Shown one piece after another: positions 2,381 to 14,441 of a DNA stretch of 14,508 nt (position 1 is the first letter of the stretch; each line of letters starts with the position of its first letter). Both the position numbers and the translations under genes were made by a program. A model generated the notes under the pieces. That model had not been told where the DNA came from, ran no database searches, and saw only the letters and a program-made list of their open reading frames with translations. Origin of the DNA: a virus; the UHGV virus genome UHGV-0180765. One strand, written 5' to 3'.

Positions 2381-3799
2381 ATGAAATATTTCTCAACTGG
2401 TTTTTATGTTTCAAACTCCACATCTCTAGCTGAGATCTTTAATGAATGTTTTTCTTGGGTAAACGACTCACCACATACAACTTTTATTCCAGCACAATTA
2501 GTATGTGATTATAAAAGCGAGGAGTACTTCATAGAGTCTAAAAATGAAAGAATTGATATAATAACTTATAAAAACAAAGATACTAGTTTAGGCTGTTTTA
2601 GGTATTCGAAAATATCTGAGCCACACAAATGGGTAACAGATATTTCAATTAATAAAAATCTCAAAACTGATACCATGTGGATTCAGGTGGAATCTAGCGT
2701 TGTAAGCCAAGATGCAGCTTATCTAGCCCCGCAACCTAAGAAACCATTAGTTGTTATGAGATTGATTGATAAATTTCCTGGTGGTCTTGATGATATTTTC
2801 AAGGTGTCAGTCGAACCTCATTCCTTAGATGATACTGATGAACATTTAAATATAGCAGCTAAAGTTATAAATGGTGAAACTGACAACAGACTACCAATAA
2901 TATACGTTAGCTCCAAGTATTTTTTTAATGAACATGCTCACAATATCATCCCAGAACGCCTTGCAAGAAAGGTATGCGGATTAGCACATGTATTAATTGA
3001 GCCTAGCAATAGACTATTTTCTATTAAGCTAAAAAATGAGACAAATGCTAAAAATGCCTATGCTGGTGCTGTTGGTATCTATTGGCCACGGGGTCAAAAT
3101 ATCAGTTTTTATCGCCGTGGTGAGAAAACCGCAAAAGAATTTGAAGATGAGTTATTTGATGATGTTGTAAGAGCTACGACTACAATGGCTCCTGTCTCAG
3201 ATAGTGGATGGAGTGAGATACAAACCAGAAAAACGAAAGACTCTATTAACTCACTCAAAGAAAGAGGAGAATACACACGCGAACTGATGGCGCTTTACGA
3301 AGCCGATAATGTTGCGAAAGATGACCAAATAGAAGATCTTAAGCATAAGATCTCCTCTTTAGAGCACAGAGTACGCACTCTTCAATCACAAGCTTCAGCC
3401 CAAGGAAGCATTGCGCTTAATGCTGGTGAAGAGACTGACTTTTTTGATGGAGAAATCAAAAATATAATTATTGACGCACTAAAAACTGCCATAAAAAATA
3501 AAAATGAATTTGGTAGAAGCTACCATATCTTATCATCCCTAATTGCCAATAATGAATACAATAAAGAAACCGAGAGTCGCCGCCAATTACTTAAAAGGAC
3601 TTTAACAGGTTACAGAAGCATGGATAGCGCAACACAAAGAAATTTAAAGGACTTAGGTTTCAGTGCGTCAAGCGATGGAAAACACTGGAAGTTAACATAT
3701 AATGAAGACCCTCGATATTCCTATATTTTACCTAAAACAGGAAGTGACCACAGAGGTTCTTTAAATGCTATCTCGGATATAGCAAATATTATTTTCTAA
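2381..3799 (+). CDS. hypothetical protein, low-GC orphan gene (function unknown; candidate accessory/defence cargo)
   Basis: 472-aa ORF with AAGGAAA RBS 4-5 nt before ATG 2381. Strongly AT-rich relative to the flanking lambda-like genes (by eye, not computed). Opposite strand to both flanking operons. Predicted coiled-coil segment in the middle (LKHKISSLEHRVRTLQSQ). No family recognised. Confidence 0.7.
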   Translation: MKYFSTGFYVSNSTSLAEIFNECFSWVNDSPHTTFIPAQLVCDYKSEEYFIESKNERIDIITYKNKDTSLGCFRYSKISEPHKWVTDISINKNLKTDTMWIQVESSVVSQDAAYLAPQPKKPLVVMRLIDKFPGGLDDIFKVSVEPHSLDDTDEHLNIAAKVINGETDNRLPIIYVSSKYFFNEHAHNIIPERLARKVCGLAHVLIEPSNRLFSIKLKNETNAKNAYAGAVGIYWPRGQNISFYRRGEKTAKEFEDELFDDVVRATTTMAPVSDSGWSEIQTRKTKDSINSLKERGEYTRELMALYEADNVAKDDQIEDLKHKISSLEHRVRTLQSQASAQGSIALNAGEETDFFDGEIKNIIIDALKTAIKNKNEFGRSYHILSSLIANNEYNKETESRRQLLKRTLTGYRSMDSATQRNLKDLGFSASSDGKHWKLTYNEDPRYSYILPKTGSDHRGSLNAISDIANIIF

Positions 3800-6167: not shown

Positions 6168-6707
6168 TCATATTGCCCCCAACATGGTGGTAACCATCGC
6201 CATCAATGGACCAGCCAGATCCGGGTCCACACGAAACATCGACACAATACCTTCACTCATCTCCTTCAGTTTCTGGTGGCGTGGTGCGTTGAGAATGACA
6301 GCCTGTTTTGCCTCACTGAGTTCCTTTTCCATTTCAGCCAACCGAGTCATGAAGCTATCCTGCTCAACCAGGTAACCGCGATATTCCAGCGGTAGTACCG
6401 CCAGAATTGCCGGGGTCAGTTCACGCACGTTATTTCGGTATTTTTCAGAATCGAATTTGTTATCGAGGAAGCGGAACAGCTTCTGGCGTGCACGGCTGAC
6501 ATCATCAGGGAAATCGATGGTGCCGCCGCCCTGCTCCCGATACTCATTCACAATGAGTGCGGCAACAACATCCTGATTATCTGCAGCCGACCAGGCGCGG
6601 ACGGCATCACGGATTTTTTCGTGGCCTGGCACCTGTTTTGTTTGAGAACGATTTATCACCGCAGTCGGGCTAAATCCGCTAGTCTGTTGGTATGTAAGTG
6701 GTTGCAT
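6168..6707 (-). CDS. YdaT-like protein (CII-position regulator)
   Basis: 179-aa ORF with AAGGAG RBS 6 nt before ATG 6707. Lies between the cro-like gene and O, where cII sits in lambda. Motifs EYREQGGG and TPAILAVLPLEYR resemble the Rac prophage YdaT family as I recall it. Family call is from memory. Confidence 0.5.
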   Translation of the reverse strand: MQPLTYQQTSGFSPTAVINRSQTKQVPGHEKIRDAVRAWSAADNQDVVAALIVNEYREQGGGTIDFPDDVSRARQKLFRFLDNKFDSEKYRNNVRELTPAILAVLPLEYRGYLVEQDSFMTRLAEMEKELSEAKQAVILNAPRHQKLKEMSEGIVSMFRVDPDLAGPLMAMVTTMLGAI

Positions 6708-7007: not shown

Positions 7008-7111
7008 AACAACCTCCGTGGTTAATTCGAATCAAGATTAAAACTATGGTTGTTTTTAGTCAACAACCATTTTCGTTTGATAGAATAAAACCTTGGTTGT
7101 ACATTTGGACT
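7008..7111. promoter_or_regulatory. oR-type operator region with divergent pR (minus) and pRM (plus) promoters
   Basis: Perfect inverted repeat ATGGTTGTT-7nt-AACAACCAT at 7046-7070, plus further TGGTTGT/ACAACCA half-sites at 7008-7014, 7019-7025 (degenerate) and 7094-7100. Candidate pRM: -35 TTGATA 7077-7082, 17-nt spacer, -10 TACATT 7100-7105, placing the transcript start at or next to the cI ATG (leaderless, as for lambda pRM). Candidate pR on the minus strand: -35 TTGACT (plus 7058-7063) and -10 TTTAAT (plus 7037-7042). Confidence 0.6.
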
Positions 7112-7801
7112 ATGAAAACAACACTCTCAGAAAGACTTAAAGAAGCCAGATTAGCGCGAGGCCTTACACAAAAGGCGCTTGGGGATTTGGTCGGGGTTAG
7201 CCAAGCTGCTATTCAGAAAATCGAAACAGGGAAAGCTAACCAAACAACTAAAATCGTGGAGATCGCGAACGCTTTGGGTGTGCGCGCAGAATGGTTATCT
7301 TCTGGCGTTGGAAATATGTCAGACAGTACAGTGCAACCAATACCATCAACTGTCAGCCATTCCAAATACTTTAAGATTGACGTTCTTGATATAGAAGTGA
7401 GTGCCGGGCCGGGAGTCATCAACCGTGAGTTTGTAGAAGTTCTACGCTCGGTTGAGTACTCGTTTGACGATGCTCGTCACATGTTCGATGGTAGGAAGGC
7501 AGAAAATATCCGCATCATTAACGTACGCGGTGACAGCATGTCAGGAACGATCGAACCAGGTGATCTGCTGTTCGTTGATATCACGGTTAAATCTTTCGAC
7601 GGTGATGGCATCTATGCGTTTCTGTACGACGACACCGCCCATGTAAAGCGCCTGCAAATGATGAAGGATAAGCTGCTGGTTATCTCTGATAACAAGAGCT
7701 ACTCACCGTGGGACCCGATCGAGAAAGACGAGATGAACCGGGTGTTTATCTTCGGGAAAGTTATTGGGAGCATGCCGCAAACATATAGGAAGCATGGTTA
7801 G
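7112..7801 (+). CDS. CI-type prophage repressor (XRE HTH + S24 LexA-like autopeptidase domain)
   Basis: 229-aa product from ATG 7112 (MKTTLSERLKEARLARGLTQKALGDLVGVSQAAIQKIE...). N-terminal HTH; C-terminal S24 motifs GDSM (Ser nucleophile) and VKRL (Lys). The upstream extension to 7046 in the ORF track is spurious, as its ATG is part of the operator palindrome. Confidence 0.85.
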   Translation: MKTTLSERLKEARLARGLTQKALGDLVGVSQAAIQKIETGKANQTTKIVEIANALGVRAEWLSSGVGNMSDSTVQPIPSTVSHSKYFKIDVLDIEVSAGPGVINREFVEVLRSVEYSFDDARHMFDGRKAENIRIINVRGDSMSGTIEPGDLLFVDITVKSFDGDGIYAFLYDDTAHVKRLQMMKDKLLVISDNKSYSPWDPIEKDEMNRVFIFGKVIGSMPQTYRKHG

Positions 7802-7872: not shown

Positions 7873-8784
7873 ATGAGCCATCAGTCCGCCCACCAACAAG
7901 AAATGTCTTTATTTCCTGTAAAAGAAGTTGAAGTAAACGGTGTACAAATGGGTGTTCTCAATGATGGAACTCCATTTTTGAGTCTCCGTGGATTATCTAG
8001 GTTATGTGGGGTCGATCACACCACACTTTTACCTCTCACCACCAACTGGTCAATAGAAAAGAATAAACCCAGAGGAAGGAGAATTGCGGAGCTTCTTTCA
8101 GAGAATGGTTTTAAAGGTGATCAATTATATTCCGTTGTCGGCGGAGGCGCATTTGGTGATACACATGCCTATCCAGATGCCGTATGCATGGCAATTCTTG
8201 AATATTATGCTTTCGATGCCACACAGGTTGATAGCACTATAGCCAGGAAAAATTACCGCCTATTAGCACGTCAAACACTTCGAGACTATATATACAAAAG
8301 TGTAGGTATTGACCCGAGAAATCCAATTAGTGGCGCCTGGAAATGTTTTCAAGAGCGAATATTGCTTAATGACAAAATTCCTGCAGGTTTCTTCAGTGTT
8401 TTTAGAGAGATGGTCGATATCACAGTTCCACTTATCAATGCAGGATTTGAGCTTGGCCCAAAAACAGTACCTGATATTAGTGTGGGTGGACGATGGGCAA
8501 TCCACTGGAAGAAAAACAATCTTAGTGAAAAATATGGCGATGTGAAAAAATATCCACATGAATATCCAGATTGGTTTCCTCAAAGTAAAGCAGGAAAAGT
8601 TCCTGCCAATATTTATCCGGAAGAGGCTTTAGGTGAATTTCGCAGATGGCTAAGAGAAGAATACATTCCAAAGGGTTTCAAAGATTATCTTGCTGATAAA
8701 GTTCAGCAGAAAGTAATTGAAAATACTAAGGCTATTGAAGTTTTAGAAAATTTGCAGCGCCCAAATCTCCCTAAGGCTCGTTAA
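7873..8784 (+). CDS. hypothetical protein encoded between repressor and pL (rexAB-equivalent position); function unknown
   Basis: 303-aa ORF, AT-rich relative to cI (by eye), followed by its own intrinsic terminator. The N-terminal ~60 residues (LFPVKEVEVNGVQMGVLNDGTPFLSLRGLSRLCGV) loosely resemble the pattern of Bro-N/ORF6N-type phage DNA-binding domains; this is an impression, not an alignment. C-terminus is Tyr/Trp/Pro-rich. Confidence 0.7.
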   Translation: MSHQSAHQQEMSLFPVKEVEVNGVQMGVLNDGTPFLSLRGLSRLCGVDHTTLLPLTTNWSIEKNKPRGRRIAELLSENGFKGDQLYSVVGGGAFGDTHAYPDAVCMAILEYYAFDATQVDSTIARKNYRLLARQTLRDYIYKSVGIDPRNPISGAWKCFQERILLNDKIPAGFFSVFREMVDITVPLINAGFELGPKTVPDISVGGRWAIHWKKNNLSEKYGDVKKYPHEYPDWFPQSKAGKVPANIYPEEALGEFRRWLREEYIPKGFKDYLADKVQQKVIENTKAIEVLENLQRPNLPKAR

Positions 8785-8791
8785 TTCTCAT

Positions 8792-8818
8792 CCCGGCTGC
8801 CATGCCGGGTTTCTTTTG
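8792..8818 (+). terminator. intrinsic (rho-independent) terminator after the 303-aa gene
   Basis: Stem CCCGGC (8792-8797), loop tgccat, stem GCCGGG (8804-8809), then TTTCTTTTG, beginning 8 nt after the stop codon. Confidence 0.65.
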
Positions 8819-8904
8819 CCTTCTCCTCATCACACACCGTTCAAAAAACCACCACGACCTCGCTTCAGTTATCGCTATGCGATGCAAGTCACAAAATAAA
8901 TCCA

Positions 8905-8990
8905 TCTTAAATACAACCAGTTATATCTAAAACAACCAACAAAACAACTTTTGTTGTTGACGATAAAACAACTATAGTTTTAAATGAATT
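8905..8990 (+). promoter_or_regulatory. putative oL/pL region
   Basis: The oR half-site recurs here (ACAACCA at 8913-8919 and 8932-8938; palindrome AACAACttttGTTGTT at 8943-8958). Candidate promoter: -35 TTGACG 8957-8962, 17-nt spacer, -10 TTAAAT 8980-8985, directed toward gam/bet/exo. Operator-like repeats overlap the promoter. Confidence 0.45.
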
Positions 8991-9262
8991 CATCGCAACA
9001 ACACAACGATACGGCAATCACCTGATTCACCGTTGCGATGACCGCTTAGATCCGCAGCTTGAATTTCAGCAGGCTCCGGGGAGTGCGAGGGGTGAAGCGG
9101 ACGCGTGAACGTCGGTGTGACCAGCTGAAATCAACTCAACACTTCATACCTCAGTCGCTTCAACGAGGCGGCTTAGTTATGACAACCGGCGGCCATCCAC
9201 CGCCTGAATACGCGCAGAAGTCTCTATATGTTCAGCAGCCCAGCTTACGGGCAGGAGTTTTT

Positions 9263-9469
9263 ATGGTTCATCAACATTACGGAACGCAGACCGTTAATCG
9301 AGGTGCGGTCATGCCAGGAATGCTGGTCAAACACAAAGATGGTACCTGGACTGCATCAGCTAATTTACGCGGACGGCTATATCTGCATCGCGGCATCGAG
9401 CGCACTTATACCCGTGATTTGCTCGTGGAAGTTTTTCTCGACGGACGCGGTAACGGCCTGAATCACTAA
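9263..9469 (+). CDS. hypothetical small protein upstream of gam (kil/cIII position); may be the C-terminal part of a longer N-like ORF
   Basis: ATG 9263 is preceded by AGGAG plus 5 nt; 68 aa. The same frame is open back to 9059 (TTG), with GTG at 9092, giving an Arg-rich N-terminus (RGVRGVKRTRERR). Start choice and identity unresolved. Confidence 0.35.
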
Positions 9470-9544
9470 TCCCCTTTCCTGTTTTCCTAATCAGCCTGGC
9501 ATTTCGCGGGCGATATTTTCACAGCCATTTTCAGGAGTTCAGCC

Positions 9545-9841
9545 ATGAACGCTTATTACATTCAGGATCGTCTTGAGGCTCAGAGCTGGGCACGTCACTA
9601 CCAGCTGATCGCCCGTGAAGAGAAAGAGGCAGAACTGGCAGACGACATGGAAAAAGGTCTTCCACAGCACCTGTTTGAATCACTCTGCATCGATCATTTG
9701 CAACGCCACGGGGCCAGCAAAAAAGCCATTACTCGTGCATTTGATGACGATGTTGAGTTTCAGGAGCGTATGGCAGAACACATCCGGTACATGGTTGAAA
9801 CCATTGCTCACCACCAGGTTGATATTGATTCAGAGGTATAA
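9545..9841 (+). CDS. gam: Gam (RecBCD inhibitor), short form
   Basis: 98-aa product [44 protein letters not shown]... matches lambda GamS as recalled. RBS AGGAG upstream. The GamL extension is interrupted by in-frame stops. Confidence 0.9.
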
Positions 9842-9846
9842 AGCGG

Positions 9847-10632
9847 ATGAGTACAGCACTCGCAACGCTGGCAGGGAAGCTGGCTGAACGTGTCGGCATG
9901 GATTCTGTCGACCCACAGGAACTGATCACCACTCTTCGCCAGACGGCATTTAAAGGTGATGCCAGCGATGCGCAGTTCATCGCATTGTTGATCGTCGCCA
10001 ACCAGTACGGCCTTAATCCGTGGACGAAAGAAATTTACGCCTTCCCTGATAAGCAGAACGGCATCGTTCCGGTGGTGGGCGTTGATGGCTGGTCCCGCAT
10101 CATCAATGAAAACCAGCAGTTTGATGGCATGGACTTTGAGCAGGACAATGAATCCTGTACATGCCGGATTTACCGCAAGGACCGTAATCATCCGATCTGC
10201 GTTACCGAATGGATGGATGAATGCCGCCGCGAACCATTCAAAACTCGCGAAGGCAGAGAAATCACGGGGCCGTGGCAGTCGCATCCCAAACGGATGTTAC
10301 GGCATAAAGCCATGATTCAGTGTGCCCGTCTGGCCTTCGGATTTGCTGGTATCTATGACAAGGATGAAGCCGAGCGCATTGTCGAAAATACTGCATACAC
10401 TGCAGAACGTCAGCCAGAACGCGACATCACTCCGGTTAACGATGAAACCATGCAGGAGATTAACACTCTGCTGATCGCCCTGGATAAAACATGGGATGAC
10501 GACTTATTGCCGCTCTGTTCCCAGATATTTCGCCGCGACATTCGTGCATCGTCAGAACTGACACAGGCCGAAGCAGTGAAAGCTCTTGGATTCCTGAAAC
10601 AAAAAGCCACTGAGCAGAAGGTGGCAGCATGA
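9847..10632 (+). CDS. bet: Bet (Red-beta single-strand annealing protein)
   Basis: 261-aa product [44 protein letters not shown]... matches lambda Bet as recalled along its full length. Confidence 0.95.
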
Positions 10633-11309
10633 CACCGGACATTATCCTGCAGCGTACCGGGATCGACGTGAGAGCTGTCGAGCAGGGGGATGATGCGTGG
10701 CACAAATTACGGCTCGGCGTCATCACCGCTTCAGAAGTTCACAATGTGATAGCAAAACCCCGCTCCGGAAAAAAGTGGCCTGACATGAAAATGTCCTACT
10801 TCCACACCCTGCTGGCTGAGGTTTGCACCGGTGTGGCTCCGGAAGTTAATGCTAAGGCGCTGGCATGGGGAAAACAGTACGAGAACGACGCCAGAACTCT
10901 GTTTGAATTCACTTCCGGCGTGAATGTTACTGAATCCCCGATCATCTATCGCGACGAAAGTATGCGTACCGCCTGCTCTCCCGATGGTTTATGCAGTGAC
11001 GGCAATGGCCTTGAGCTGAAATGCCCGTTTACCTCCCGGGATTTCATGAAATTCCGGCTCGGTGGTTTCGAGGCCATAAAGTCGGCTTACATGGCCCAGG
11101 TGCAGTACAGCATGTGGGTGACGCGAAAAGATGCCTGGTACTTTGCCAACTATGACCCACGAATGAAGCGTGAAGGCCTGCATTATGTCGTGGTTGAGCG
11201 GGATGAAAAGTACATGGCGAATTTTGACGAGATGGTGCCGGAGTTCATCGAAAAAATGGACGAGGCACTGGCTGAAATTGGTTTTGTATTTGGGGAGCAA
11301 TGGCGATGA
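10629..11309 (+). CDS. exo: Exo (Red-alpha 5'-3' exonuclease)
   Basis: 226-aa product [50 protein letters not shown]... matches lambda Exo as recalled. Start overlaps the bet stop (ATGA). Confidence 0.95.
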
Positions 11310-11464
11310 AGCATCCTCGCGATAATATCCGGGTAGGCGCGATCACTTTCATCTACTCCGTTACAAAGCGAGGCTGGGTATTTCCCGGCCTTTCTGTTAT
11401 CAGAAATCCACTGAAAGCACAGCGGCTGGCTGAGGAGATAAATAATAAACGGGAGAGTGTATGA
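11306..11464 (+). CDS. small hypothetical protein (52 aa), translationally coupled between exo and the downstream gene
   Basis: Not in the ORF track (too short). ATG 11306 overlaps the exo stop (ATGA) and its stop overlaps the next gene's ATG (ATGA at 11461-11464). Product [52 protein letters not shown]. Occupies the position of lambda orf60a. Confidence 0.45.
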
Positions 11465-12213
11465 TTCATTTTCACGGTGGTCCAATAACTCCCGATACCT
11501 GTGCGTTGAAAGCCTGGAAAGGCAGACACGCATTCATCAGTTTTGCTAATCCAGCTCAGATTGATCTGGCTTCCGAAGTCACCCAATCATTTGCTCTTGA
11601 TAATGGTGCATTCACATTCTGGACAAAAAACAAGGCCGTAGACTGGAATGAATATTACAGATTTGTTGAACGCTGGGGTAATCACCCTCGTTTCTCATTC
11701 GCGGTTATCCCGGATGTTATCGGCGGAACCAGTGAAGAGAATGACGCCCTGATTGCGGCATGGCCTCACGGTAAATTTATTGGTGCTCCGGTGTGGCACA
11801 TGAACGAACCAGATGAGCGATTTATTCGTCTGTGCCATGAGTTTCCCCGCGTCTGCATCGGCTCGATGGGGGAATACGATGCAAAACGACCGAGAGCGTG
11901 TCGGGCTAAACTACGCGATCTTATACGTCATGTTGTAGATCAGTACGGCTACCCAATCACCAAGATTCATGGGTTACGGATGTTAAATAAAGACATTTTT
12001 ACTCATGTACCGCTTTCGTCTGCAGACAGCACGAACGTCGCAAGAAATATAGGCATCGACAAATCCTGGGTAGGTTCGCCATATGCTCCCGCAAGTAAAG
12101 AAACCCGTACGCAAGTTCTTGTGGAACGCATTGAATCATTCAACAGTGCCAGTTCACTTAATTACAACGCTGAACGGGACGTCTTTACCCCTCAACTGGC
12201 ATTCGAAGTGTGA
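11461..12213 (+). CDS. TGT-superfamily (tRNA-guanine transglycosylase-like) protein; candidate DpdA-like DNA transglycosylase
   Basis: 250-aa ORF with GGGAGAG RBS. Four segments, in the order seen in tRNA-guanine transglycosylases, resemble conserved TGT motifs as I recall them: LDNGAF (cf. TDSGGFQ, catalytic Asp), VIGGTSEEN (cf. VQGGMYENL), CIGSMGE (cf. AIGGLSVGE), ADSTNVARNIG (cf. FDCVMPTRNARNG, second catalytic Asp). No CxCxxC...H zinc cluster visible. Not confirmed by alignment. Confidence 0.6.
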   Translation: MIHFHGGPITPDTCALKAWKGRHAFISFANPAQIDLASEVTQSFALDNGAFTFWTKNKAVDWNEYYRFVERWGNHPRFSFAVIPDVIGGTSEENDALIAAWPHGKFIGAPVWHMNEPDERFIRLCHEFPRVCIGSMGEYDAKRPRACRAKLRDLIRHVVDQYGYPITKIHGLRMLNKDIFTHVPLSSADSTNVARNIGIDKSWVGSPYAPASKETRTQVLVERIESFNSASSLNYNAERDVFTPQLAFEV

Positions 12214-12220
12214 GGCCAAT

Positions 12221-12436
12221 ATGACAATAGAACATAATAACGCCCTTCGCAGCATAGCCCGTCAGGCTAATTCTGAAATCAAAAAAGCCAGACAGCAGTT
12301 TCCGGATAAAAACGTCGATGACATTTGCCGTAGCGTACTGAAGAAGCACCGCGAAACGGTAACGCTGATGGGATTCACACCGACTCATTTAAGCCTGGCG
12401 ATCGGCATGTTAAACGGCGTCTTTAAGGAGCGATGA
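12221..12436 (+). CDS. hypothetical small protein (71 aa)
   Basis: ATG 12221 is 5 nt after GAGG and 8 nt after the stop of the preceding gene. The longer track ORF from 12083 overlaps the upstream gene in another frame and is less likely. Confidence 0.5.
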   Translation: MTIEHNNALRSIARQANSEIKKARQQFPDKNVDDICRSVLKKHRETVTLMGFTPTHLSLAIGMLNGVFKER

Positions 12437-12458
12437 ACATGAAAAGCAAAATCATCAG

Positions 12459-12480
12459 GGAGCTACAGGCTCCTTTTTTA
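12459..12480 (+). terminator. intrinsic terminator within the early-left operon
   Basis: Stem GGAGC (12459-12463), loop tacag, stem GCTCC (12469-12473), followed by TTTTTTATT. Lies between the 71-aa gene and the TraR-like gene. Confidence 0.5.
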
Positions 12481-12534
12481 TTATTCGCATTCACCCTCAA
12501 GCGTATTAACCAACAATTCAGGGATTAATGGAAG

Positions 12535-12753
12535 ATGGCAGACATCATTGATTCAGCATCAGAAATCGAAGAATTACAGCGCAATACAGCAATAAAAATG
12601 CGTCGTCTGAACCACCAGGTTATATCTGCCACTCATTGTTGTGAGTGTGGCGATCCCATAGATGAACGAAGACGCCTGGCCGTTCAGGGTTGTCGGACTT
12701 GTGCAAGTTGCCAGGAGGAGATCGAACTTAAGAACAAACAATGGGGATTGTGA
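12535..12753 (+). CDS. TraR/DksA-family C4 zinc-finger protein
   Basis: 72-aa product with CCECGDPI...(x17)...CRTCASC, the CxxC-x17-CxxC arrangement of TraR/DksA-type small phage/plasmid proteins. Confidence 0.7.
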   Translation: MADIIDSASEIEELQRNTAIKMRRLNHQVISATHCCECGDPIDERRRLAVQGCRTCASCQEEIELKNKQWGL

Positions 12754-12800
12754 TGGCCTCAAAGCAGCAAATTTCAACATCGTCCAACTGAGGTGTAAAA

Positions 12801-13079
12801 ATGTTCAGAATCATTTTTCCTAACACCTGGTACATCGACCACCACGGCACTCCCTGCAAAATCCTGCGTTCTACCCACAACAAAGTTCACTACATCCGAA
12901 AAGGCAGAACATGTATCGCCAGCATGTTCCGCTTTAATCATGACTTTGAACCTGTGAATAAAGCTGATGCAGATCGGATAGCAGAAGAGATCGAAACGGC
13001 AGAACACATTAAGAAGTTACGTGACATGCGTTCAAAAAGCAGAGGTAACCATGGAATCATACAGCCTCACACTCGATGA
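12801..13079 (+). CDS. hypothetical protein (ea-region, upstream of xis)
   Basis: 92-aa ORF with GAGG RBS 8 nt before ATG 12801; its end overlaps the xis start by 29 nt in another frame. Confidence 0.5.
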   Translation: MFRIIFPNTWYIDHHGTPCKILRSTHNKVHYIRKGRTCIASMFRFNHDFEPVNKADADRIAEEIETAEHIKKLRDMRSKSRGNHGIIQPHTR

Positions 13080-13401
13080 GGCCTGTCAGTTTCTCAAGAT
13101 ATCCAGACCTACCGCTACCAACTGGATACGAACAGGCCGCCTACAGGCAACACGCAAAGACCCCACTAAACTAAAATCTCCTTACCTCACAACACGACAA
13201 GCCTGCATTGCGGCGCTTCAGTCTCCGCTGCATACTGTCCAGGTGAGCGCGGGTGATGGCATAACAGAGGAAAGAAAATGTCACTCTTCCGCAGAGGTGA
13301 AATATGGTACGCCAGTTTCACATTGCCGAACGGTAAAAGATTTAAACAGTCTCTTGGAACAAAGGACAAAAGGCAGGCGACAGAGCTCCATGACAAGCTA
13401 A
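13051..13401 (+). CDS. xis: excisionase (P22 Xis type)
   Basis: 116-aa product from ATG 13051 ([38 protein letters not shown]...) resembles P22 Xis as recalled; its 3' part overlaps the int start. Confidence 0.8.
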
Positions 13402-14441
13402 AGGCTGAAGCATGGCGGGTCAGCAAACTTGGTGAAATACCTGATATGACGTTCGAGGAGGCGTGTATCAGGTGGCTCGAAGAGAAAGCACATAAAAAAT
13501 CACTGGACGATGACAAAAGCCGGATCGGATTCTGGCTTCAACATTTCGCAGGAATGCAACTAAGAGACATTACTGAATCAAAAATTTATTCAGCAATGCA
13601 GAAAATGACGAACCGGCGTCATGAGGAAAACTGGAAACTCAGGGCAGAAGCATGCAGAAAAAAAGGGAAACCTGTTCCAGAATACACGCCAAAACCAGCG
13701 TCCGTTGCAACGAAGGCTACGCATCTTTCATTTATAAAGGCCCTACTAAGAGCCGCAGAGCGTGAATGGAAAATGCTGGATAAGGCACCAATTATTAAAG
13801 TGCCTCAACCAAAGAATAAACGGATCCGCTGGCTGGAGCCCCATGAAGCACAAAGGCTGATTGATGAATGTCCGGAGCCATTAAAGTCTGTTGTTGAATT
13901 TGCACTGGCAACAGGCTTAAGACGCTCGAACATCATCAACCTTGAATGGCAACAAATAGATATGCAGCGCCGGGTGGCATGGATAAACCCGGAAGAGAGT
14001 AAATCAAACCGCGCAATCGGCGTTGCGCTGAATGATACTGCATGTCGCGTTTTGAAAAAACAAATCGGGAATCATCACCGTTGGGTATTTGTGTACAAGG
14101 AAAGCTGTACCAAACCAGACGGAACGAAAGCGCCAACAGTAAGGAAGATGCGGTATGACGCAAACACAGCCTGGAAAGCGGCGCTGAGACGGGCTGGTAT
14201 TGATGATTTCAGATTTCACGACTTGAGACACACCTGGGCAAGTTGGCTGGTTCAAGCCGGAGTCCCGTTGTCAGTGTTACAGGAAATGGGAGGCTGGGAG
14301 TCTATCGAAATGGTTCGTCGATATGCTCACCTTGCACCTAATCACCTTACCGAACACGCACGGCAAATAGACTCGATCCTGAACCCATCGGTCCCAAATT
14401 TGTCCCAGTCAAAAAATAAGGAAGGTACTAATGATGTGTAA
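13278..14441 (+). CDS. int: tyrosine integrase (P22 Int type)
   Basis: 387-aa product [47 protein letters not shown]... with tyrosine-recombinase motifs near the C-terminus ([17 protein letters not shown]). Resembles P22 Int as recalled. RBS AGAGGA upstream. Transcribed toward the tRNA 14 nt beyond its stop. Confidence 0.95.

Follow-up and report, generated by a model that had tools for sequence, protein, structure and literature searches.

A stand-alone DpdA-family protein coupled to the exonuclease gene of a lambda-like prophage: a candidate writer of host-fed 7-deazaguanine marks in DNA

The UHGV virus genome UHGV-0180765, a stretch of 14,508 nucleotides that we analysed at its full length (hereafter, the window), carries a gene for a protein of 250 amino acids directly coupled to the recombination genes of a lambda-like prophage. 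We found that this protein is almost certainly a member of the phage DpdA family. Judged from its sequence, it belongs to the gamma-proteobacterial group of singleton DpdAs, a classification that was already published in 2019 and is not new; what we add are the exact boundaries of the cassette in which the gene resides, its frequent adjacency to orphan DNA methyltransferase genes, and the finding of clade members coupled to QueE and QueC or to YhhQ. Taking all the evidence together, we favour, with moderate confidence, the explanation that the protein is a stand-alone phage DpdA that uses 7-deazaguanine made by the host.

The DpdA-type identity proposed in the initial annotation from sequence motifs holds up, and the assignment follows from three results. 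The protein matches PHROG 887, 'queuine tRNA-ribosyltransferase', with an E-value of 4e-99. A profile of a diverse family alignment is linked by hhalign to two phage DpdAs whose genes are embedded in clusters for the synthesis of 7-cyano-7-deazaguanine (preQ0): the DpdA of the Seuratvirus Bas24/SeppeHuegi (99.05%, E 2.2e-18, 173 columns), encoded among queC, yhhQ, queD and folE, and gp3 of Rinkes, a mycobacteriophage DpdA of the Rosebush type (98.5%, E 3.3e-15; BLASTP 26% identity, E 3e-11), encoded in a folE-queC-queD-queE operon. Finally, the protein is 100% identical to gp34 of the Shigella flexneri phage SfI (YP_009147480), which is listed among phages possessing DpdA only (Hutinet et al. 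2019; PMC6884629, supplementary file 4) together with the proteins of HK106, BTP1, SPN3UB and 7-11. Identity to these other group members is 67.6% for BTP1 and SPN3UB, 37% for HK106 and 36% for 7-11. In the same study the gamma-Proteobacteria phage cluster of singleton DpdAs constitutes group 3, of unknown function, defined by having no preQ0 genes and found in phages whose hosts make queuosine (PMC6884629). The SfI protein is named "queuine tRNA-ribosyltransferase" in viral RefSeq, and the PGAP name for the same protein in E. coli chromosomes is "hypothetical".

The gene and the sites to which we refer below are as follows.

10629-11309, plus strand: exo (lambda exonuclease, YqaJ domain; Pfam YqaJ E 4e-30), here upstream in the coupled chain, its stop overlapping the next start as ATGA.
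11306-11464, plus strand: open reading frame (ORF) of 52 amino acids with a DUF1317 domain (lambda orf60a type; Pfam DUF1317 E 2e-31; phrog_1998), linking exo to dpdA.
11451-11457, plus strand: GGGAGAG, a Shine-Dalgarno-like run 3 nt 5' of the dpdA ATG, read from the sequence.
11461-12213, plus strand: the dpdA-like gene, an intact ORF of 250 amino acids for a predicted minimal barrel of the tRNA-guanine transglycosylase (TGT) superfamily.
11599-11601, plus strand: codon of Asp47 in LDNGAF, at the end of strand 3; invariant in both the diverse alignment and an alignment of 78 sequences reaching down to 44% identity; aligned with LDSGAF of Bas24 DpdA.
11713-11715, plus strand: codon of Asp85 in IPDVI, at least 90% conserved in the diverse alignment and invariant among the 78 sequences; aligned with the Asp of ALDVIG in Rinkes DpdA.
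11797-11799, plus strand: codon of His113 in PVWH, at the end of strand 5; invariant among the 78 sequences; aligned with PVWH of Rinkes and PCFH of Bas24.
12025-12027, plus strand: codon of Asp189 in SADST, invariant; aligned with SCD206SS of Bas24 DpdA, with the invariant His170 19 residues upstream.
11464-12238, plus strand: swappable cassette, bounded at 11463 and 12239 by blastn against the dpdA-less phage ev243.
12221-12436, plus strand: ORF of 71 amino acids downstream of dpdA (phrog_303, E 1e-34, function unknown).
12457-12485, plus strand: terminator-like hairpin (12457-12475) with a T-run, found by consensus scan only; the first such site after the exo-dpdA chain, just past the 71-residue ORF.

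The sequence bears out the proposed coupling of the gene to exo through the DUF1317 ORF: both junctions are ATGA overlaps, at 11306-11309 and 11461-11464. Of the coordinates given initially for the TGT-like gene, 11306-12213, the end is right and the start is not, since 11306 is the start of the DUF1317 ORF and the TGT-like gene begins at 11461. The DUF1317 ORF has another possible ATG at 11300, which would make it 54 residues long; in E. coli EF7-18-58, PGAP picks the start giving 52 residues. The 71-residue ORF was considered as a partner of DpdA and rejected, as it is common in phages lacking dpdA and is probably not a partner.

The four segments originally noticed as resembling, in the right order, the catalytic and substrate motifs of TGTs proved to be real family features. 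In diverse alignments, LD47NGAF, IPD85VI, PVWH113 with IG134S, and SAD189ST show little or no variation. The residues invariant across the 78 sequences include D47, G49, A50, D85, H113, G134, H170, L172, R173, D189 and S190, which the structural model places at the C-termini of strands 3 to 8; the presumed catalytic Asp pair (D47 and D189) and base-binding Asp (D85) are among them. In the bacterial DpdA of known structure (7UI4), the corresponding functions are assigned to D95 (acid/base), F99, D130, H181, G206/G207, L236 and D256 (nucleophile). From the order and spacing of the motifs, these residues would correspond to D47, F51, D85, H113, G134, L172 and D189 of the window protein. By this analogy Asp47 would be the general acid/base, Asp85 the Asp that recognizes the base, His113 the equivalent of His181, and Asp189 the covalent nucleophile. 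The Bas24 DpdA itself weakly matches the bacterial DpdA model at positions 200-260 (E 1e-3), a segment holding the Gly pair and the nucleophilic Asp.

At 250 residues the protein lacks the zinc-binding subdomain, just as originally described. The zinc motif of E. coli Tgt is C302-x-C304-xx-C307; the window protein has four Cys residues, at positions 14, 125, 132 and 147, and no CxCxxC motif occurs in it or in the DpdAs of Bas24, Rinkes, 7-11, HK106 and BTP1.

Structure prediction yielded the TIM-type barrel that was anticipated for a TGT-like protein. A first model, based on a shallow alignment, was mediocre (predicted local distance difference test, pLDDT, 74.8), and a Foldseek search of the PDB with it returned generic TIM barrels, the archaeal enzyme ArcTGT appearing only at rank 33. 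The second model, obtained with AlphaFold2 from the 78-sequence alignment, has eight strands, a pLDDT of 92.3 and a predicted template modelling score of 0.88. A structure search with this model covered 48,164 chains and gave the following order.

Rank 1: Cap10 (9NTN), 16.3.
Rank 2: bacterial DpdA (7UI4), 15.7.
Rank 3: bacterial TGT, 14.2.
Rank 4: archaeal TGT, 14.1.
Rank 5: PdxJ, the best unrelated barrel, 13.5.
Rank 7: QTRT2, 12.9.

The margin is modest, and the order is consistent across both models. As modelled, then, the protein appears to be an eight-stranded β/α barrel closest to TGT-type structures.

The family is large. At 90% identity there are 6,182 clusters by search with the single sequence and 6,932 by search with the profile (E <= 0.001); at 50% identity there are 1,682 representatives (E <= 0.001). 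Comparison with alleles 83-91% identical gave a median of 0.107 nonsynonymous differences per site (pN) and of 0.85 synonymous differences per site (pS), and a pN/pS of 0.12, a ratio left uncorrected and not converted to dN/dS on account of saturation at synonymous sites. Purifying selection on the protein is strong.

Between positions 9800 and 13300 the window is 98.1% identical to SfI, the match to which starts only at 9463. The dpdA gene occupies the same place in SfI, BTP1 and HK106, between the recombination genes and xis-int, with differing neighbours. In phage ev243 the match to the window breaks off after base 11463 and resumes at 12239, and the place of the dpdA cassette is taken by 283 bp comprising the end of DUF1317 and a DUF1382 gene. 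The full DUF1317-dpdA-orf71 cassette is present in 95 of 5,426 complete E. coli genomes, and some part of the 1,131-bp query finds a match in 3,363 of them.

The initial annotation had also pointed out that no genes for preQ0 synthesis lie nearby, and we reached the same result: neither ORF annotation nor tblastn with QueC, QueD, QueE, FolE and YhhQ seeds detected any in the window. Likewise, tblastn found no QueC, QueD, QueE, FolE, YhhQ or ParB-like gene in 80 close viral loci, the relatives retrieved here being all at least 83% identical. The absence of linked 7-deazaguanine genes is not disqualifying, since the published group 3 is defined by lacking them. Around dpdA these loci feature at least 16 upstream and at least 20 downstream ORF families, and the preceding ORF usually ends in an ATGA overlap with the start of dpdA. 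An orphan DNA methyltransferase gene lies within 200 nt of dpdA in 37 of the 80 (loci L007-L086); by seed, these are MT-A70 (21 loci), phage Dam (13), D12 (2) and N6_N4 (1), four unrelated families. This adjacency is suggestive only, since this part of the genome takes up accessory genes in general.

More distant relatives offer clues about supply of the base. Among ten contexts at 46-56% identity, deazaguanine genes stand beside dpdA in two. In one of them, a soil-metagenome phage contig (L093, 5174-7992), a gene for a 276-residue protein with a Lar restriction-alleviation domain is followed by a dpdA 51% identical to that of the window, an overlapping QueE-like radical-SAM gene and QueC; a YAcAr (SLOG) gene comes after QueC, and neither QueD nor FolE was detected up to the end of the contig. 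In the other (L097, 5531-8667), a YhhQ-like (Vut_1) preQ0 transporter gene, whose product is 42% identical to Bas24 YhhQ, overlaps a dpdA 48% identical to ours and is followed by genes for the beta clamp of DNA polymerase III and for an N6_N4 DNA methyltransferase.

The window as a whole represents the early region of a lambda-like prophage, in which the following further features were recognized.

7046-7801, plus strand: cI-like repressor.
7873-8784, plus strand: BstA abortive-infection gene (PADLOC E 7e-122, phrog_6287), directly 3' of the cI-like repressor.
Between BstA and bet, plus strand: kil, then gam.
9847-10632, plus strand: bet (RecT family).
After the 71-residue ORF, plus strand: DksA-like, DUF4222 and xis, in this order.
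13278-14441, plus strand: int.

At the far end from int, a single ORF of 507 residues on the minus strand (582-2105) is a fusion, in which residues 3-115 are the N-terminus of NinB/YbcN and residues 106-504 a Mu-like DNA-circulation/baseplate-hub protein. The junction, near 1781/1782, is spanned by no complete E. coli genome in the collection. This fusion points to a deletion that removed the rest of nin, Q, and the lysis, head and most tail genes, and the prophage of the window is therefore probably defective. The cI-pL side looks intact. A consensus scan of the plus strand from 8700 to 13400 found no sigma-70-like promoter, so that pL could not be located.

Several further observations concern this region. 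A GC-rich terminator-like hairpin (8792-8809) follows the BstA gene, whose position is taken by rexA/rexB in SfI and by nothing in E. coli EF7-18-58. Between BstA and kil/gam (8810-9545), neither an N-like antiterminator gene nor a sigma-70-like pL promoter was recognized. The minus-strand ORF in the cII position (6168-6707) matches both the PHROG 'CII-like transcriptional activator' (E 2e-67) and Pfam YdaT_toxin (E 5e-30). Between ninB' and ren/P, on the opposite strand, lies a plus-strand ORF of 472 residues (2381-3799) with no Pfam match. It weakly matches HEC-07, a candidate defence model in PADLOC (E 1e-9), and phrog_2053 at the C-terminus. E. coli JS01 has it with 100% conservation under the annotation hypothetical, and it might be an accessory gene of the phage with a role in defence.

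How might such a minimal protein work? E. coli K-12 makes preQ0 through FolE, QueD, QueE and QueC. It also has the queuosine genes queA and tgt. Dependence on preQ0 from the host, as envisaged for the window protein, has a precedent in phage 9g: its DpdA alone, expressed in E. coli, put dPreQ0 from host preQ0 into plasmid DNA, at 0.03-0.3% of G (PMC6884629). We propose that the dpdA of the window would be expressed early, as part of a single unit of transcription and translation that also includes bet, exo and DUF1317, as the arrangement of the ORFs suggests. Its product, a stripped-down eight-stranded barrel of the TGT type, would act on double-stranded DNA, not tRNA, and would flip out guanine at preferred sites. 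The base would be read by Asp85 and His113, and Asp189 would displace it to create a covalent intermediate of enzyme and DNA, with Asp47 serving as general acid/base. A free 7-deazaguanine, either preQ0 or one of its precursors, 7-amido-7-deazaguanine (ADG) or 7-carboxy-7-deazaguanine (CDG), drawn from the host FolE-QueD-QueE-QueC pathway, would then resolve the intermediate. The outcome would be sparse, site-selective, post-replicative 7-deazaguanine marks on phage DNA that might hinder some restriction or other DNA-targeting defences. Because the base supply would come from the host, the level of modification is expected to be low, well under 1% of G.

Family membership, conserved residues, gene arrangement and the neighbourhoods of relatives are matters of observation and the fold one of modelling; substrate, chemistry and benefit to the phage are inferred. 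That the window protein inserts 7-deazaguanine into DNA at all is in our estimate somewhat probable, and our confidence that such insertion would protect the phage from restriction is lower. In Bas24, mutations in DpdA allow escape from GrwAB, a modification-dependent system. Rosebush DNA contains 28% dPreQ0, CAjan-type phages replace up to about 30% of G, and CAjan lacking dpdA loses dPreQ0, CAjan being grouped with Rosebush as a phage having the preQ0 pathway (Hutinet et al.; PMC6884629).

A number of results weigh against the interpretation of the window protein as a DNA-modifying DpdA. Phage 7-11, the sole gamma-proteobacterial singleton measured, has dADG only, at 0.02% of G, and phage Orion has no 7-deazaguanine modification (PMC6884629). 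SfI DNA was cut when analysed with restriction enzymes, so that bulk replacement of G is unlikely; this and the trace of dADG in 7-11 are the reasons why we expect sparse marks and not bulk replacement. Tblastn found no DpdB-like (ParB-like) partner in the window, and the bacterial DpdA needs the ATPase DpdB. In eight of the ten contexts at about 50% identity, dpdA stands alone among early or recombination genes, with no deazaguanine gene in its vicinity, and the copy in the window seems to sit in a deleted prophage. A literature search brought up no experimental work on singleton DpdAs of lambdoid or P22-like phages, nor any later paper that settles the role left open in 2019; later papers define DpdA3 and DpdA4 without testing these singletons. 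Sequence searches add to this list. Pfam, including PF01702, gave no match at E <= 1 for the protein and no TGT match for any of 63 diverse family members; scans of NCBIfam and PADLOC gave no TGT or DpdA match for the protein; searches of PDB sequences with phmmer (protein) and hmmsearch (family profile) returned only chance matches, to HipT and GCN4; and hhalign of the family profile with the single E. coli Tgt sequence established no link, even with relaxed settings and an extended profile. The PF01702 search that had been suggested as a check is thus negative, and yet it is neither a fair nor an informative test, because DpdAs of phages with preQ0 clusters fail it as well: Rinkes DpdA, like that of 7-11, has no Pfam match, and neither Bas24 nor Rinkes DpdA has a PDB sequence match. 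The link to canonical TGTs rests on the fold, on the match of Bas24 DpdA to the bacterial DpdA model and on published HHpred work.

The same fold and catalytic residues as in DpdA would also serve an enzyme that exchanges or excises DNA bases for a purpose other than self-protection, such as removing or replacing modified or damaged guanines, attacking the deazaguanine DNA of competitor phages or countering a host Dpd-type system. Most family members have no deazaguanine supply gene nearby, and modification in 7-11 is only trace. In addition, the exo-xis region is known to harbour accessory genes of varied function. On the other hand, the coupling of some clade members to QueE and QueC or to YhhQ speaks for uptake and use of a deazaguanine base, and we found no literature precedent for such an activity in this family; we consider this role unlikely. 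The top rank of Cap10 in the structure search brings up another option, namely that the barrel binds 7-deazaguanine attached to, or transferred onto, a protein or other non-DNA target. Partners of Cap10 (Cap9/QueC, CD-NTase) were absent from the window by ORF annotation, tblastn with QueC and a PADLOC scan for the cyclic oligonucleotide-based antiphage signalling system (CBASS), and we regard a Cap10-like function as highly unlikely.

Taken literally, the RefSeq and PHROG names, along with the membership in the TGT superfamily by fold, would make the protein a tRNA-guanine transglycosylase altering host or phage tRNA during infection. The database name, however, appears to have been carried over by homology: the zinc subdomain and a Pfam TGT match are both missing, the 250 residues, compared with 375 in E. 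coli Tgt, leave little space for the insertions with which TGT grips the anticodon arm, the nearest characterised relatives act on DNA, and the host already has a Tgt. A tRNA substrate is therefore very improbable. It could also be that the copy in this window is merely carried along by a prophage in decay and is of no use to the cell, as the NinB-Mu-like fusion ORF, with the implied loss of Q, lysis and head genes, might suggest. However, the ORF is intact, SfI, a viable phage, encodes the identical protein, purifying selection on the family is strong and the cI-pL side of the prophage looks preserved, all of which makes a mere passenger quite unlikely.

If the stand-alone DpdA that we favour is active, a lambda-like temperate phage hypermodifies its DNA with one small gene by way of the host queuosine pathway. 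The matter concerns a large family, about 6,900 clusters at 90% identity, a close allele of which is found in 95 of 5,426 complete E. coli genomes, and the question of singleton DpdAs is directly testable, since phages that are easy to work with, among them SfI and PhiR5_1 on E. coli C, carry this copy. More speculatively, the stand-alone DpdAs of temperate enterobacterial phages might in general be host-fed writers of rare, motif-specific marks of 7-deazaguanine (or of another exchanged base, e.g. ADG or CDG) and not agents of bulk anti-restriction. They might act on phage DNA during its replication, and after induction perhaps also on the host chromosome, with a narrower purpose: for example, to keep a single class of defence from acting at the sites it recognizes, or to label DNA for the Red system expressed along with them. 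We put this forward as a conjecture that we ourselves hold to be rather unlikely.

Set against known systems, the window protein belongs with the singleton DpdAs of SfI, HK106, BTP1, SPN3UB and 7-11; nothing separates it from this group. For the canonical enzymes E. coli Tgt, Z. mobilis TGT and ArcTGT, no sequence-level link to it was found with the tools used, and the window protein, which lacks a zinc subdomain, is at 250 residues considerably shorter than Tgt. The DpdA of the bacterial Dpd system (S. Montevideo, 7UI4) differs in its 413 residues with insertions, its CxCx2Cx22H zinc site and its dependence on DpdB, and the PADLOC DpdA model does not match the window protein. Cap10 of type IV CBASS (9NTN) likewise has no zinc site, and its catalytic Asp is paired with a His (D248/H226) in a way resembling D189/H170 here; however, it is 325 residues long and dimeric, holding the N-terminus of a CD-NTase that carries the NDG modification made by Cap9. 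Rinkes gp3 has the same motifs, including ALDVIG and PVWH, but is 290 residues long and its operon lies next to a ParB-like gene. The DpdA1 proteins of Queuovirinae (9g, CAjan, Bas24/SeppeHuegi) share only about 20% identity with the window protein, and the Bas24 protein, of 306 residues, has a longer C-terminal part and is encoded in a folE/queD/queC/yhhQ cluster, whereas the window gene has no such cluster. Nevertheless, the two are homologous over about 175 residues, have LDxGAF, P-x-(W/F)-H, IG(G/S), KLH and S-x-DS in common and both do without the zinc motif, and the DpdA of 9g works in E. coli without DpdB.

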